Source: Xylella taiwanensis
GTDB taxonomy: Bacteria > Pseudomonadota > Gammaproteobacteria > Xanthomonadales > Xanthomonadaceae
NCBI RefSeq assembly: GCF_013177435.1
Contig: NZ_CP053627.1
Coordinates: forward strand, 1,440,001 to 1,472,000
Length of the DNA stretch: 32,000 bases
Direction of reading: 5' to 3'
In this document: piece by piece, positions 6,801-15,800 of the stretch
Numbering within the stretch: the first letter of the stretch is position 1
Layout: each line of letters starts with the position of its first letter
Program-made: the position numbers

Positions 6801-9800
6801 GCTGGCGTGGCTTAACAAGCGCTACTGAAGGATTGGGCATCGACGACATCTTATTAGTAGTTGCGCATGATGCAGTCAACCGAGTGCTCCTATGTCGAGT
6901 GATGGGACTGCCGTTGGCCCATTTATGGCGCTTCCACCAAGCACCTACTACGCTGAATTTGCTCGAAGGAAAAGATCTTGACCAGCTACAAGTAGTACGC
7001 CTAAACGACTGCGCTCACCACACACCGTTCTTCGGTGAAGCTAGGCATCGTGCACTGTAGCATTGATTTTAGAGAGCAAGGTTCATAAGCCCATGCATAA
7101 ATGGACATAATATGCATTATGCGAAATGAAATGTGAAAGAGCGACAAAGCGCGCAGACACACTGTTAAGTTGGCTACAAACCAAACTTAACACCCTCAAA
7201 GCCATGCTAACGCCAGCATCGCTAGCATGGCTGTAGTCATCGAAGATCCCATCACCGATCAAGTGCTCAATGAAAACTGGACGGGGTTTGCATTTAGAAA
7301 CGGATATCTGGTAACACCGGAAAGACGGTACATCGAACCGTATCAACTGCGATGGCTATCACTCACATGCACACTGGCACGGGAATGGCAAAAAATGATG
7401 GAGCACGCACGAGCGGTTCCATTACAAGGCGGCCCTGCCGCGACCGATCATCAACGCCTCATTAACGACGCCCAAAAAACGGGTTTGCGTAACAGAAAGT
7501 GTCCTGACACGGACATAGGATCGGTCATCCTGCTTAGCCATGTACTGATGCAACGCCAACACAAGCGTTAACCGTAGGGGGTAAACCCCCTACACCCCCT
7601 ACTCGGATACAAAGATTAAGGAAAAATCCTAAGCTAAACCGAGGATGCACATTCCAGCCAATTTTCGATCTTAAGGCCACGAATACGCTTAAACTCTTTA
7701 ACATTATCCGTTACCAATGTCATCCCCAGTACATAAGCATGAGTACCTATCAATAGATCATTTAAGCCGATAGTTTGTCCTACTGACTCCAACTCTGCAC
7801 GAATGCGACCATATTCAGCGTCGGTAGGAATATCCAAAGGCAGCACAGGAATTGTTTCAAGCATGAGCTTCACCTTCGCAAGCAACTTGGTCGATCCTTT
7901 CTTTGCACAACCATACCGCAACTCAGCAGCGACAACGATGCTAGTGCAAACCTCTTTTGGATCGACCTTTTCAATGCGACACGCAACTAGTCCAAACGGA
8001 TTACGGATCATGTCGCTAATGATGTTCGTATCGAGCAAATATCCGCTCAAAATATGTCATCCGGCTTAGCAAGCATGTCCTCAATTTCAGGAAACTGATC
8101 TTCAAGTCCAAGCGGATCTTCCGTTTTCCACTGCGCTAACAATTCTATAATGTTGGTAGGCATGCTCACAGGCTCAATGATGAGCTTGCTACCCTCGCGA
8201 TGAATCAATACTCGATCCCCCGGTAATTCAAACTCAACCGGAATTCTCACGGCCTGACTGCGATTGTTGCGGAACAGCTTAGCTTCCTTGAGTCTAGATG
8301 ATGGCATAGAAATAGACATAGTATCGGCTCATTGTATATGCCATATTGTATATGTAAATATCGGAGCTGCGGTCGCTGCGACTATCATCAAATTCTTCTG
8401 ACCAATACTTAAGGTAACGCCCCTGCCGCAGACACACTCACCTGCTTAGCCGTACTGCCCTGAACCAGTGAAGACGATACTTGCCCCTGTTGCATAGCAC
8501 TATGCTCCTGCACACGCTCACGATACGGGTTATACACCGGACCCCGCCGCGCGATCGTTCGACACTCCAGCTGTGAAATGTCATACACCGTCCCCTGCTC
8601 GGTGTAACACGTGCAGGACGAACCCTTATACACCCCCTGAGCATCCAGACCCGCACCGCCAGACATACAGATCAATTGAGGATCTACCGTCGGGGAACGA
8701 TGATCATAAATCGGAGCCGTCCACGGCATCGATGCAAAACGCGGTAAATGATCTTTGGCATAGGCTGTGACTGTCGGCCAACGTGGCCCCTCCCCACGGC
8801 TAGCTTCACCCGCTTTCGGGGACGCATCGCCGCCGGTACCCGGCGTGCTCCGCGTCCCCTCAATTGAGGAAGAAAACCCCGAAGGGATCAAGGAACGATA
8901 GGCATAAAAGACACAGGCCACAATGACAACAACCATTAACGGAATCAATACAAGCTGCCAAGGCAGACGCATCTTGATGGTATGCACTTCGGCTGATTTA
9001 TACAGCTTATACACGTGCTTAGGTAGACGACGCACCGAATGCCGTGAAAACTGACGATTGGTAGAAGAATCAGTCTCTTCAACAAGCTGATCCCAGTCAT
9101 ACACATCTAGCCAGGACGTGCCAAAACGACGTTTCACAAAGGTATGACGGCCAATCAAACCACGCACAAAAGGATACAACTGCTTATGCGCCAATTGCGT
9201 CGTCCACACAAAATCTAACCCACGGTGGCGATGCTCAGCAAGCTCAAGGGCATGAGGCGGCGTCGGCTGATGGGACGCATTAAATGCACTGCCAAACCAT
9301 TTCCACGCCTCATCTATAAAAATAATAGCTCCATGAGGCACAAGATACTCACCCTGATCATTTTTAGCATTCCACTGCCGAGGGTCCGCCAGATCCGCCG
9401 CAAGGCCAGGGGCTAATCCATCAATCCCCGCCGCAAAAATCGGACGCTGAGCACGCTCACTCTCAGCCAATAACATCTCCATCATTAAAGCCGTTTTCCC
9501 GCCTCCAGGCGTAGCCGTAATCACGTGAATAGGCATACACGCCCCCTGTCAAGAAACCGATGTGGGCGGCGTACCGCCATAACCGCGCTTAAATAAATAC
9601 AACCGCCCATTCAATACCGCAAACCGGGCCACATACGCAGAAATAATCATCGACAACGCACGATCAACATTCAAAATACCCAACGCCCTCACCGCCAAAT
9701 CGCCGAACTGACCACCGCTAGAACCCACACTATCCATATACGTATATAACTGATCCACAAGAGGCGATATCACAAAATGATAGGACCCCCAATTAATACC

Positions 9801-12800: not shown

Positions 12801-15800
12801 CTTGGCCCCTGGCCCATTGAATCCCGCGATGGGGACGCTTGGACCACACCCGACCATATAAGGACCGATTAATACAACTGACAAAATAACGGTACGCTTT
12901 ATCAGCGGCTTCCGGATGCATACTGCCATTGCAACCGGAATTGGTCGGTCGAAACGTCAAGGTCCAAAACTGCTGCCAAGGGATGCGACGTAATAAATCG
13001 GCATACGCGGCTGACTGAAGGCGGACCCCGGATTGATTGAACTGGGTGTTTAATAATTGACATAACTGTTCATCACGTTCTGCAAGAGACATCACCCCTC
13101 ATCAACGGAAAGATCACGGGCTCACGTATCCGTGGACATTGCCTACGGCACCGTGTGCACATCTCATTGACAGTGGTGCACGGCACAAAACGCCGCACAC
13201 GCACTGACAACAAGATGCACACACTATGACCACCGATACGCGATGAGAGAATATCGACATTTCACTTTTAAACACCCACTACATGTATTTAGATAAAGAT
13301 AAAACAGACATACAGCGCCAAGGTAAACCAAATAGCAAAACGAGGAAGAATCTCCTCCACAAAAAAACCAATCTTGTCTAGCCGAGAGGTACGACGCCAC
13401 CAAAACTTATATGGAGTCAGCAAACGAGTCATCAAGTAATTCATAGAAAATTGTAAATCGCTAGATGTCTAAATACTCAATGATTAAAAAGGAAAGCATA
13501 GAGCCCAGGCAAAAATATAAAAAAAGTAGGGAACGGCCAAAAGAAAGGTGTTCAAATAATGTATAGACATAATGCTTGCCTCAATAAAGCACATTCATCC
13601 AACTGATCCAATGCCGCAATACGAACATGGGACCAAAACTCCAACTGATCTGGAATCACCTCAAATAAATCAAATTGCGATGATCGCAATGCCTGAATAT
13701 CTGCAATCTCTAACGCCATACGAGCACCTCGCTCAGTATCGGTGATGCGCATACCCTACTCTCCTACTTCGTTTCATATGATCAATGCGCATATAAAAAA
13801 CTAAGCAGCCGCTACGGAAAGAGATTCCTCTAAACGATGCGACAGGCGGGTCAGTAAATCAGAAAAATCATGAAGATCATCAACAATACTGTAAGCAAGC
13901 GAAGCAACAGATGGATGATCTAACTCATCAGCAATCAATGCGATCGCTGATAAACAAACGTAAGTATCATGGTTACAAATAAAAGAGCCGGCACTACGTA
14001 AATGGCAAATATGCTCAGTCAGCTGCTGCCGGGACATCCGATTAAAATCAACGGGAATGCGCATGATCTAATGCTCCGCTTCAGTTTTAGCATCTAACTT
14101 AAATCGCTCAATAGCCAAACGACAAAGATCAGGAACCTGAGACTGAGACAATTTCCCAGAAGGAATAAACAACACTAAAAGGTCAAACGTCATACCGTCA
14201 GCAGATACACCTTCTTTCACCTGCAACATCTCTACACTCCTACCCTGCCCTACCCTTTGCTTAGAACACCTCCTCACCCGGGTATGGCTTAATGAAGAGA
14301 TGTGCAATCCAATACTCTTGGATTACAAATATGATTCAATACCCTTGGAGCATAAAAATCAAGAGGCTTGGTTCACAATGGATATAAATTTACTACTTGA
14401 CAAAGCAAAAGAAATGTATTCCGTGAAACAGGACAAAGAACTAGCACAGAAGCTAAAAATCAAAGCAACAGCAATAAGCAATTACAGAAAAGGCATATCA
14501 CTACCAGACGCAATAGCATGCTCAGCACTAGCAAATGCCACAGGACTACCACTAGCAAAAGTAATTGGAATCGTTGGAGAAGCGCGAGCAAAAAGCAAAG
14601 AGGAAAAAGCAGTCTGGCGGAAACTAGCAACAGCGGCCACGTTAGCATTAGGTGTAGGCGTTACCTCCCCTAACGTGTCAGAGGCGTCGAATCACGTGAA
14701 AAATAGATTATTCACAAAGTGGACAGATTATGCATTATGCGAAATGGGAGAAGAAGGTCGACACAGTACACACGAGAACTGTTAACTGCATTGAAAGCAA
14801 AACTGAATAACGTAAAAGCCATGCTAACGCCCGAATCGCTAGCATGGCTGTAGTTATCGAAGATCCCATCGCCGATCAAGTGCTCAATGAAAACTGGACG
14901 GGGTTTGCATTCAGAAACGGATATCTGGTGACACCGGAAAGACGGTACATCGAACCGTATCAACTGCGATGGCTATCACTCACATGCACACTGGCACGAG
15001 AATGGCAAAAAATGATGGAGCACGCGCGAGCGGTTCCATTACAAGGCGGCCCTGCCGCGAGCGATCATCAACGCCTCATTGACAACGCCCAAAAAACGGG
15101 TTTGCGTAACAGAAAGTGTCCTGACACGGACATAGGATCGGTCATCCTACTCAGCCAAGTACTGATACAACGCCAACACAAGCGTTAACGTAGGGGGTAA
15201 ACCCCCTACACCCCACTCAATCATTAATCGTCGAACAAATCAGCATGACGACCAGTACGCTCAAAGCGCACCACATCACCATCAACCTTATAGATTAACA
15301 ACCAATCCGGCTCAACATGAGCATCCCGGAAACTACGCCACTGCCCCTTAAGCGGATGATCCAAATACATCGCAGGCAACGGACTACCCTCAATCAGCAA
15401 AGTTATTAGAATCTTAAGTTTCTCTATGTCCTTACCGCGCTTCTGAGACACTCGCACATCACGCTTGAACTGCGAAGAATAAGCAGGACGGCGCATTAGA
15501 TACCAAGATCTTTAAACATGGCATCAGCACTTTCAGCATAATGCACATCCTCACCACACTCACTTTTAACAAAAGTCTCAACCGTAAGCCTATTAGGTGA
15601 GTGCATCTCAAAAGGCAACATTTTTTCACGAGCCACTTTAGTCAAGGTGATACGTATAAGATCAGATACGGTAAGGCCCATCGTCGCAAGTACAGAAGCG
15701 GCCTCATCTTTAAGAGCCTCATCAACTCTGGCACGCACAAGTGCATTTGCAGCCATAAGTTTACGATCCTTCACTATTTAGCAGAAAGAAAAATGTAGCT

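Follow-up and report, generated by a model that had tools for sequence, protein, structure and literature searches.

Prophage P1 lies at the predicted chromosome dimer resolution site (dif) of Xylella taiwanensis, within a stretch of 32,000 nucleotides (NCBI RefSeq assembly GCF_013177435.1, contig NZ_CP053627.1, positions 1,440,001 to 1,472,000), hereafter the window, to which all coordinates refer. We conclude that P1 is very probably an inovirus, lacking an integrase, that entered the host dif by site-specific recombination, with the host recombinases XerC and XerD as the presumed agents and a phage-encoded DUF3653 protein as their presumed helper. This conclusion draws on the paired recombination sites that bracket P1, on assemblies of the same species from which P1 is precisely absent, and on the orthologous locus of Xylella fastidiosa.

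Paired sites bracket prophage P1

Read on the minus strand, the sequence from 7127 to 7100 is ATTTCGCATAA-TGCATA-TTATGTCCATT, and that from 14745 to 14718 is ATTTCGCATAA-TGCATA-ATCTGTCCACT. The two 28-mers have the 11-6-11 architecture of Xer sites, are in direct orientation on the same strand, and lie 7,618 bp apart, with a complete inovirus gene set between them. The 17-mer that they share, ATTTCGCATAATGCATA, which comprises the XerC arm and the 6-bp central region, is present in exactly two copies: no third copy was found in the window at up to three mismatches (0.17 matches were expected from shuffled sequences), and no other 28-mer of the window came within nine mismatches of either reference site. 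The XerD-side arms, TTATGTCCATT and ATCTGTCCACT, differ at three positions (T1A, A3C, and T10C); in ATCTGTCCACT, two of these changes affect the inner TTATG motif, which does not vary among the sites of Escherichia coli (as quoted in the first-pass annotation of this DNA), Xanthomonas campestris, Xanthomonas oryzae, and Xylella, and the remaining one is in the outer part.

The first-pass annotation, made from the sequence alone, had given the positions, minus-strand orientation, and exact sequences of both 28-mers, had counted three changes in the XerD arm of the internal site, and had noted that TATGCATTATGCGAA is one base away from TATACATTATGCGAA, the attachment core of the Xanthomonas phages XacF1 and Cf1c; we confirmed each of these statements. 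It had further called the site at 7100-7127 canonical, a description that is apt by the standard of the Lysobacterales, but not relative to E. coli, in which the outer half of the XerD arm is TAAAT rather than CCATT.

The site at 14718-14745 has a composite origin. Its XerD-side flank runs into the P1 repressor gene, and its XerC-side flank is DNA of the adjacent prophage, P2; this internal site is the arm of the P1 phage attachment site (attP) joined to the shared core. When P1 was reconstructed as a circle, its attP read cacatttc-ATTTCGCATAA-TGCATA-ATCTGTCCACT-ttgtgaat, giving the predicted junction cacatttc-ATTTCGCATAATGCATAATCTGTCCACT-ttgtgaat in the 3' end of the repressor open reading frame (ORF), with the DUF3653 gene downstream of that ORF on the same strand. 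Because attP lies in the 3' end of the repressor gene, integration is predicted to alter the C-terminus of the protein, from 184 amino acids (aa) in the circular form to 161 aa in the prophage.

P1 is precisely absent from other X. taiwanensis assemblies

Contexts of the locus (designated by L numbers) were gathered from public X. taiwanensis assemblies by look-up of the protein encoded by the neighboring His_Phos gene. Four of them (L002, L004, L005, and L039) carry a single site, ATTTCGCATAA-TGCATA-TTATGTCCATT, adjoining His_Phos, such that a P2-type or remnant flank ending in cttcttctccc is followed by the site and then by tatgcatgggc, which leads into His_Phos. The P1-free relatives hence keep the 28-mer at this locus; its absence from them was the outcome that the first-pass annotation had named as fatal to its reading. 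In L001, L003, and L041, as in the window, P1 is inserted, and the arm ATCTGTCCACT is found at its far end. The L002 context aligns to 1-7127 and 14710-24678 of the window at 99.4-99.9%, and both L002 and L039 correspond to the window minus exactly 7128-14745 (7,618 bp).

In the assemblies without P1, P2-type DNA adjoins the XerC arm, and TTATGTCCATT leads straight into the His_Phos flank. Divergence of the flanks begins just beyond the XerC arm on one side and with base 1 of the XerD arm on the other, which confines the crossover to the 17 bp common to both sites. In the X. taiwanensis contexts shown, the TTATGTCCATT arm is confined to the position beside His_Phos, and the 17-bp core is present at the hybrid sites as well. 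Neither domain nor PHROG annotation revealed in any P1 gene a domain of the integrase, transposase, or resolvase type, so that P1 most likely borrows the XerC and XerD of its host. The first-pass annotation had recognized here the pattern of an IMEX, a mobile element that integrates by exploiting Xer, an assignment borne out by the identical 17-bp core, the host dif as target, the lack of a recombinase of its own, and the precise presence or absence of the element.

The site beside His_Phos as the probable chromosomal dif

Comparison with X. fastidiosa supports the identification of 7100-7127 as the chromosomal dif, and the candidate placement of the replication terminus here rests on this orthology together with local evidence. 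The QueC encoded in the window is 100% identical to the NCBI protein of X. taiwanensis, and the His_Phos gene of the window is 92% identical to its X. fastidiosa counterpart. A matching left-flank gene order in X. fastidiosa ends in the orthologous His_Phos gene, and 10 bp beyond it stands a site, ATTTCACATAA-TGC(T/C)TA-TTATGTCCATC, which is followed by tandem inoviruses of another lineage whose distal sites carry the arms TTATGTCC(GCT/ACG). In X. fastidiosa L047 (CP090518.1), the order is queC, tRNA-Lys, one prophage, ACTTCGCATAA-TGCATA-TTATGTCCATC, and His_Phos; this site is single and has no Xer-integrated element in it. In X. fastidiosa L044-L046 and L048, the XerC-side flank and core of the L047 type lead into phage arms, and elements occupy the site. 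Within this species the XerC arm and central region beside His_Phos vary with the adjacent phage. Taken together, these layouts indicate that the interval running from queC and tRNA-Lys to dif and His_Phos is ancestral in the genus, and the predicted chromosome-linked XerD arm of Xylella, adjoining His_Phos, is TTATGTCCAT(T/C). The earlier proposal that dif was regenerated on the chromosomal side of P1 is upheld by this orthologous site, including its occurrence in L047 with nothing integrated.

Sites for X. fastidiosa have been predicted previously: that of strain 9a5c is ATTTCGCATAA-TGCATA-TTATGTCCGCT and that of strain Temecula1 is ACTTCGCATAA-TGCATA-TTATGTCCGCT (Carnoy and Roten 2009; PMC2731167, supplementary file 2). 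The predicted sites of the two strains (9a5c, Temecula1) lie 330 and 650 bp from the GC-skew switch, and xerC and xerD are listed for both (PMC2731167). The arm of the published 28-mer is TTATGTCCGCT, as against the chromosome-linked TTATGTCCATC, and the 6-nucleotide flanks of the published dif match the distal sites of the His_Phos locus. These sequences suggest that the published 28-mer may be not the chromosomal site itself but a hybrid one, belonging to an element integrated at the true dif locus.

More distant relatives share the site, but not its surroundings. The dif of Xanthomonas campestris, ATTTCGCATAA-TGTATA-TTATGTCAGGA, has the same XerC arm as the two sites of the window. A scan of representative-genome contigs with the pattern TTCRCATAATGNNTATTATGTCC yielded 19 matches in Lysobacterales, and in 19/19 of these genomes there was one matching contig with one site, A(C/T)TTCGCATAA-TGnnTA-TTATGTCCnnn; TTATGTCC was preset in the pattern, so that this part of the consensus is not independent evidence. 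His_Phos was a neighbor at none of the 19 dif-like loci (0/19), indicating that the synteny holds only within Xylella.

Local strand asymmetry is consistent with a terminus at this position. In X. taiwanensis, the 10.7 kb left of the site have a GC skew of +0.014, and the 10.8 kb right of it one of -0.088; the corresponding flanks in X. fastidiosa give +0.037 and -0.093. The GGGNAGGG motifs, counted on the plus/minus strands, number 2/0 and 3/0 to the left and 0/3 and 0/2 to the right, such that all 10 (10/10) point toward the site. As the flanks of the two species are orthologous, neither the skew values nor the motif counts are independent samples. The X. taiwanensis genome paper (PMC8176220) makes no mention of phage, dnaA, GC skew, terminus, or inversion.

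Proposed route of integration and its alternatives

In the proposed mechanism, a double-stranded attP (ATTTCGCATAA-TGCATA-ATCTGTCCACT, in the 3' end of the DUF3693 repressor gene) would recombine with dif, the crossover falling within the 17 bp of XerC arm and central region. The products would be an intact dif beside His_Phos and, at the far end, a hybrid site that bears the poor XerD arm of the phage. Host XerC and XerD would perform the exchange, and the P1 DUF3653 protein (7227-7571) may act as does XafT of the Vibrio cholerae element TLCphi, activating XerD without FtsK; the nonconsensus XerD arm of the hybrid site may then shield the prophage from FtsK-driven excision at cell division. 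As dif is regenerated on the His_Phos side, elements would stack there, and P1 would be the latest arrival.

XafT is a DUF3653 protein that binds XerD and activates it independently of FtsK, and most DUF3653 proteins lack a helix-turn-helix (HTH) domain and are located next to dif (Midonet et al. 2019; PMC6744903). The P1 ORF at 7227-7571 starts 99 bp from dif, matched only DUF3653, with no HTH domain, and has homologs in Cf1c, XacF1, phiLf, and SMA phages. The presence of such an XafT-like protein makes P1 most likely a member of the TLCphi-like class, in which XerD is activated, and not a generic XerC-first element.

An unlikely, though by no means negligible, alternative is that P1 reached dif as VGJphi and CTXphi do, by the default pathway that is XerC-first and independent of FtsK; replication or XerC would then resolve the Holliday junction, and the DUF3653 protein would have a different role or none. 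The attP of P1 would suit XerC-mediated exchange, since its XerC arm is perfect and its central region is the same as that of dif; moreover, the function of DUF3653 has been demonstrated only for XafT of TLCphi (PMC6744903), and the P1 protein, with no HTH domain, matches the family at the Pfam level only. The position of the gene argues otherwise: it stands 99 bp from attP not only in P1 but also in P2 and XacF1/Cf1c, it is absent from the integrase-type prophage P3, where an integrase stands in its place, and the typical DUF3653 protein both lacks an HTH domain and adjoins dif (PMC6744903). It is improbable that 7100-7127 is instead a phage-derived, dif-like attachment site (att) left by an older element, with the real dif and terminus elsewhere. 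The conservation of TTATGTCCAT(T/C) beside His_Phos in two species, including a single site with nothing integrated, speaks against a leftover att, as do the independently published X. fastidiosa dif prediction at the same locus, at the skew switch (PMC2731167), and the change of both flank skew and GGGNAGGG polarity at this point. Such an origin would accord with the difference of the XerD arm from the E. coli consensus, with a copy number in the X. taiwanensis genome that is known only from the window and the contexts seen, and with the fact that in X. fastidiosa the XerC arm and central region change according to which phage adjoins them; such change, however, is what repeated integrations would be expected to yield.

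We give very little credence to homologous (Campbell-type) recombination between circular P1 and the DUF3653 region of P2, of about 500 bp, with the dif-like repeats being incidental. Positions 7102-7598 and 14720-15214 are indeed 90.6% identical, and the mosaic DUF3653 flanks of L001 show that homologous exchange happens in this region; nevertheless, the 90%-identical stretch is present only on the XerC side and the crossover is at the extreme edge of the homology, in the 17-bp core, which is not where homologous recombination is expected. On the XerD side, the P1 repressor and the His_Phos flank have no homology, and the junction is the 17-bp core in every alternative arrangement seen, also in X. 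fastidiosa with its unrelated phages. It is extremely improbable that a phage tyrosine integrase acting in trans, such as that of P3 before its frameshift, integrated P1 with the dif-like sequence serving as att. The array does contain an integrase gene (22195-23035), and in X. fastidiosa subsp. pauca the distal dif-like site adjoins integrase remnants, but the P3 enzyme is frameshifted and is tied to a different, 118-bp tRNA-Lys att, the DUF3653 gene of P1 occupies the position of the P3 integrase gene, and the 11-6-11 Xer architecture is common to the one-per-contig sites of other genera.

Several points weigh against Xer-mediated entry of P1, with XafT-like help, into a terminus-located dif. 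We infer the Xer dependence of P1 integration from sequence features. The XerD arms of TLCphi and XacF1 are fully degenerate, unlike ATCTGTCCACT of P1, and because that arm is only mildly changed (two inner positions and one outer), XerD may still bind it and an XerC-first pathway stays live. Neither megablast of P1 against a phage collection nor a search of IMG/VR with the P1 attP returned a match that would represent a free attP or episomal P1. In every X. taiwanensis context, phage DNA occupies the XerC side of dif, so that a wholly element-free dif is seen only in X. fastidiosa. The 19-genome scan returned no Xylella record, although its pattern fits the known sites of X. fastidiosa and X. 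taiwanensis, and the number of copies in X. taiwanensis is that of the window and the contexts seen. With regard to the terminus, local GC skew around L004, taken in 1-kb steps over 10 kb, was too noisy to serve as evidence, and the skew evidence for X. taiwanensis comes from local flanks, not from the whole genome. Record coordinates place the locus at about 50-52% in three assemblies, and near 0/100% or at 95% in others, so that they cannot be read as distances from oriC; the values of about 50% in CP087690.1 and CP087683.1 had been considered as terminus evidence and were dropped, as other assemblies start at or near the array.

Gene content of P1 and organization of the prophage array

From left to right, the window carries gpx, an fnr-like gene, thiC, an S46 peptidase gene, His_Phos, dif, P1, P2, P3, tRNA-Lys, and queC. 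The features of the locus are listed in Table 1.

Table 1. Features of the dif/tRNA-Lys interval in the window
Feature	Position	Strand	Remarks
His_Phos_1 ("pgm-like") gene	6416..7060	+	Conserved chromosomal neighbor of the dif XerD arm
Predicted chromosomal dif, regenerated on the chromosome side of P1	7100..7127	-	XerD arm toward His_Phos; TTATGTCCATT His_Phos-linked in every X. taiwanensis context seen
P1 prophage	7128..14745	-	7,618 bp including one site copy; inovirus without integrase; precisely absent from L002 and L039
DUF3653 protein, 114 aa, XafT-like putative Xer activation factor	7227..7571	+	PF12375, 31.4 bits vs cut-off 22.4
Toxin-antitoxin cargo	7634..8319	-	PIN toxin 7634-8050; MazE/AbrB-type antitoxin 8047-8319
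Zot/pI-like assembly ATPase	8409..9536	-	PF05707; phrog_197
DUF2523 minor coat protein (9549-9893) and pIII-like adsorption protein (9896-11326)	9549..11326	-	
Major coat protein Phage_Coat_B (11461-11709) and small virion/DNA-binding ORFs (11706-11915, 11915-12229)	11461..12229	-	
Replication initiator, REP_ORF2-G2P family, 196 aa	12505..13095	-	Precomputed Pfam; phrog_10883
P1 repressor/regulator, HTH_3 + DUF3693	14300..14785	+	attP in 3' end; arrangement as in XacF1 ORF12
Hybrid site	14718..14745	-	XerC arm and central region common to both sites, followed by P1's own nonconsensus arm ATCTGTCCACT
P2 prophage	14746..22178	-	Own DUF3653 gene 14844-15188; YafQ/RelB cassette; right end a tRNA-Lys-type att
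118-bp att repeat, partial tRNA-Lys 3' half, at P2/P3 boundary	22061..22178	-	
P3 prophage	22179..30329		Flanked by 118-bp direct repeats with tRNA-Lys 3' half
Tyrosine integrase of P3, frameshifted	22195..23035	-	Catalytic-Tyr motif RRYAHL out of frame
tRNA-Lys(UUU) (30281-30356), overlapping second 118-bp att (30212-30329)	30212..30356	-	P3 right end

P1 and P2 are close relatives, being 99.2% identical over 5.9 kb (8409-14302 vs 15845-21738) and 90.6% identical over 0.5 kb beside the sites, and they differ in the toxin-antitoxin cassette and in the repressor/att module. The P2 copy of DUF3653 matches PF12375 at 31.7 bits; P3 has its integrase at the corresponding position. P2 is bracketed unlike P1: its left end has a dif-type site and the DUF3653 gene, but no third dif-like site was found at its right end, even at nine mismatches, and its repressor gene ends in a 118-bp tRNA-Lys-type att like that of P3 (97% identical). 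As it stands, P2 has no matched pair of sites for excision. Its mixed ends probably arose, we infer, through deletion by homologous recombination between tandem relatives, one integrated at dif and one at tRNA-Lys, a history made plausible by the fact that in this genus dif and tRNA-Lys are parted only by prophage DNA.

The frameshift in the P3 integrase gene lies near 22320-22330, with the segment that holds the catalytic tyrosine (YVLQELGGWQSESMVRRYAHL...) in another frame; in other assemblies the annotated integrase ORF is likewise 322 aa long, suggesting that it has the same frameshift. Three type II toxin-antitoxin cassettes occupy one position, between the lysogeny gene and zot, at 7634-8319, 15224-15774, and 23320-23862: a PIN toxin with a MazE/AbrB-type antitoxin in P1, YafQ with RelB in P2, and a MazE-like protein with PemK in P3. 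This position looks like a swappable cargo slot. A GC-rich hairpin, CGTAGGGGGTAAACCCCCTACACCCC, follows the DUF3653 gene or integrase gene in all three prophages (7573-7598, 15189-15214, and 23237-23262), and a similar hairpin is present in an X. fastidiosa prophage near dif (L047, ~18385-18420); it probably serves as a terminator or as a cis element of the phage.

The replication proteins also differ within the array. P1 and P2 encode a Rep of 196 aa in the REP_ORF2-G2P family (12505-13095 in P1), and P3 encodes a 382-aa Rep_trans protein (27766-28914); their structural genes are 70-90% similar. The P1 Rep was considered as a truncated form of the P3 Rep, and this was ruled out, the two being unrelated proteins with no similarity. 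The replication modules of the array prophages appear to have been exchanged as units. In all, related Xylella inoviruses collect at the neighboring dif and tRNA-Lys by means of two interchangeable lysogeny modules, (i) DUF3653 with Xer or (ii) an integrase with tRNA-Lys.

Possible rearrangements at the 17-bp core

Some near-identical X. taiwanensis assemblies depart from the arrangement in the window. In L003 and L004, the order is His_Phos, dif, (P1), a third allele of the DUF3653 gene, a 79-aa ORF, a Zot-like gene, and TatD. In L038, L040, and L042, queC is followed by P3, P2, (P1), a site with the arm ATCTGTCCACT, a repressor fragment, HNH, and FtsY. All junctions in these assemblies are at the 17-bp core, and the single-nucleotide polymorphisms in the flanks fit reciprocal exchange among three sites.

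We tentatively name as exchange partners dif, the hybrid site of P1, and, as the third, an attP-like site elsewhere, in the order HNH, repressor fragment, site, DUF3653, 79 aa, Zot-like, and TatD; that these three recombined, moving P1 and inverting a segment that ends in dif, is possible rather than likely. The rearrangements suggest Xer-site-mediated inversion and movement of P1, with assembly error or heterogeneity in the population as the alternative. When the parental third locus was sought by look-up of the remnant Zot-like protein, the exact protein was not returned, and the best match was at 78%.

Relation to known phages

The phages most similar in lifestyle to P1 are XacF1 and Cf1c, together with phiLf and Cf16-v1, which infect the same host family, lack an integrase, and regenerate dif on integration. 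Integration of XacF1 at dif has been demonstrated experimentally. The XacF1 attP, ACTTCGCATAA-TGTATA-GAGGGTGGGTA, lies in ORF12 (DUF3693) and is followed by ORF11 (DUF3653-like), and the order of these modules in P1 is identical. P1 differs from the Cf1c/XacF1 group in its REP_ORF2-G2P replication protein and its PIN/antitoxin cassette, in the central region of its host dif (TGCATA), and in its XerD-side arm, which is mildly changed, whereas GAGGGTGGGTA of XacF1 is unrelated to the consensus. Nucleotide identity to XacF13, Xf109, Xf409, and SMA6 is about 69% over 10-17% of P1, and megablast against the phage collection gave no match, placing P1 outside species- or genus-level nucleotide similarity to the Cf1c/XacF1 group.

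TLCphi of V. cholerae shares with P1 a double-stranded attP, a poor XerD arm, a DUF3653 gene beside attP, dif as target, and the capacity for stacking. TLCphi is a satellite, however, and P1 has a full inovirus gene set; XafT is an HTH domain fused to DUF3653, whereas the 114-aa protein of P1 is DUF3653 only. VGJphi uses the XerC-first pathway. Phages of its type resemble P1 in having a double-stranded attP in the replicative form, reversible integration at dif with regeneration of the site, and tandem arrays. The published dif of X. fastidiosa and the prophage Xf-phi-f1 share with P1 the locus, the XerC arm, TGCATA, and tandem inoviruses beside His_Phos, and the published dif lies at the GC-skew switch; these X. 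fastidiosa phages belong to a different lineage (Rep_trans) and have the opposite orientation to P1. On balance, P1 most likely fits the known XafT/TLCphi-like class of Xer-integrating elements.

Implications

Integration of filamentous phages at dif, and the occurrence of DUF3653 genes in Xanthomonadaceae, are already published. As dif-integrating phages are known in Xanthomonas, P1 is a clear new example and not a new mechanism: its integration is a well-documented but ordinary case. The analysis gives a probable position for dif and for the replication terminus in X. taiwanensis, and it provides a natural before-and-after case of a DUF3653-carrying inovirus at dif in a quarantine plant pathogen. 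The locus can be used for strain typing and for the annotation of prophage borders, and it offers a test case for XafT-like factors outside Vibrio. If the rearrangements described above do reflect exchange among Xer sites, a phage-encoded XafT-like factor would let Xer recombination reshape the terminus region, beyond the insertion of the phage itself.

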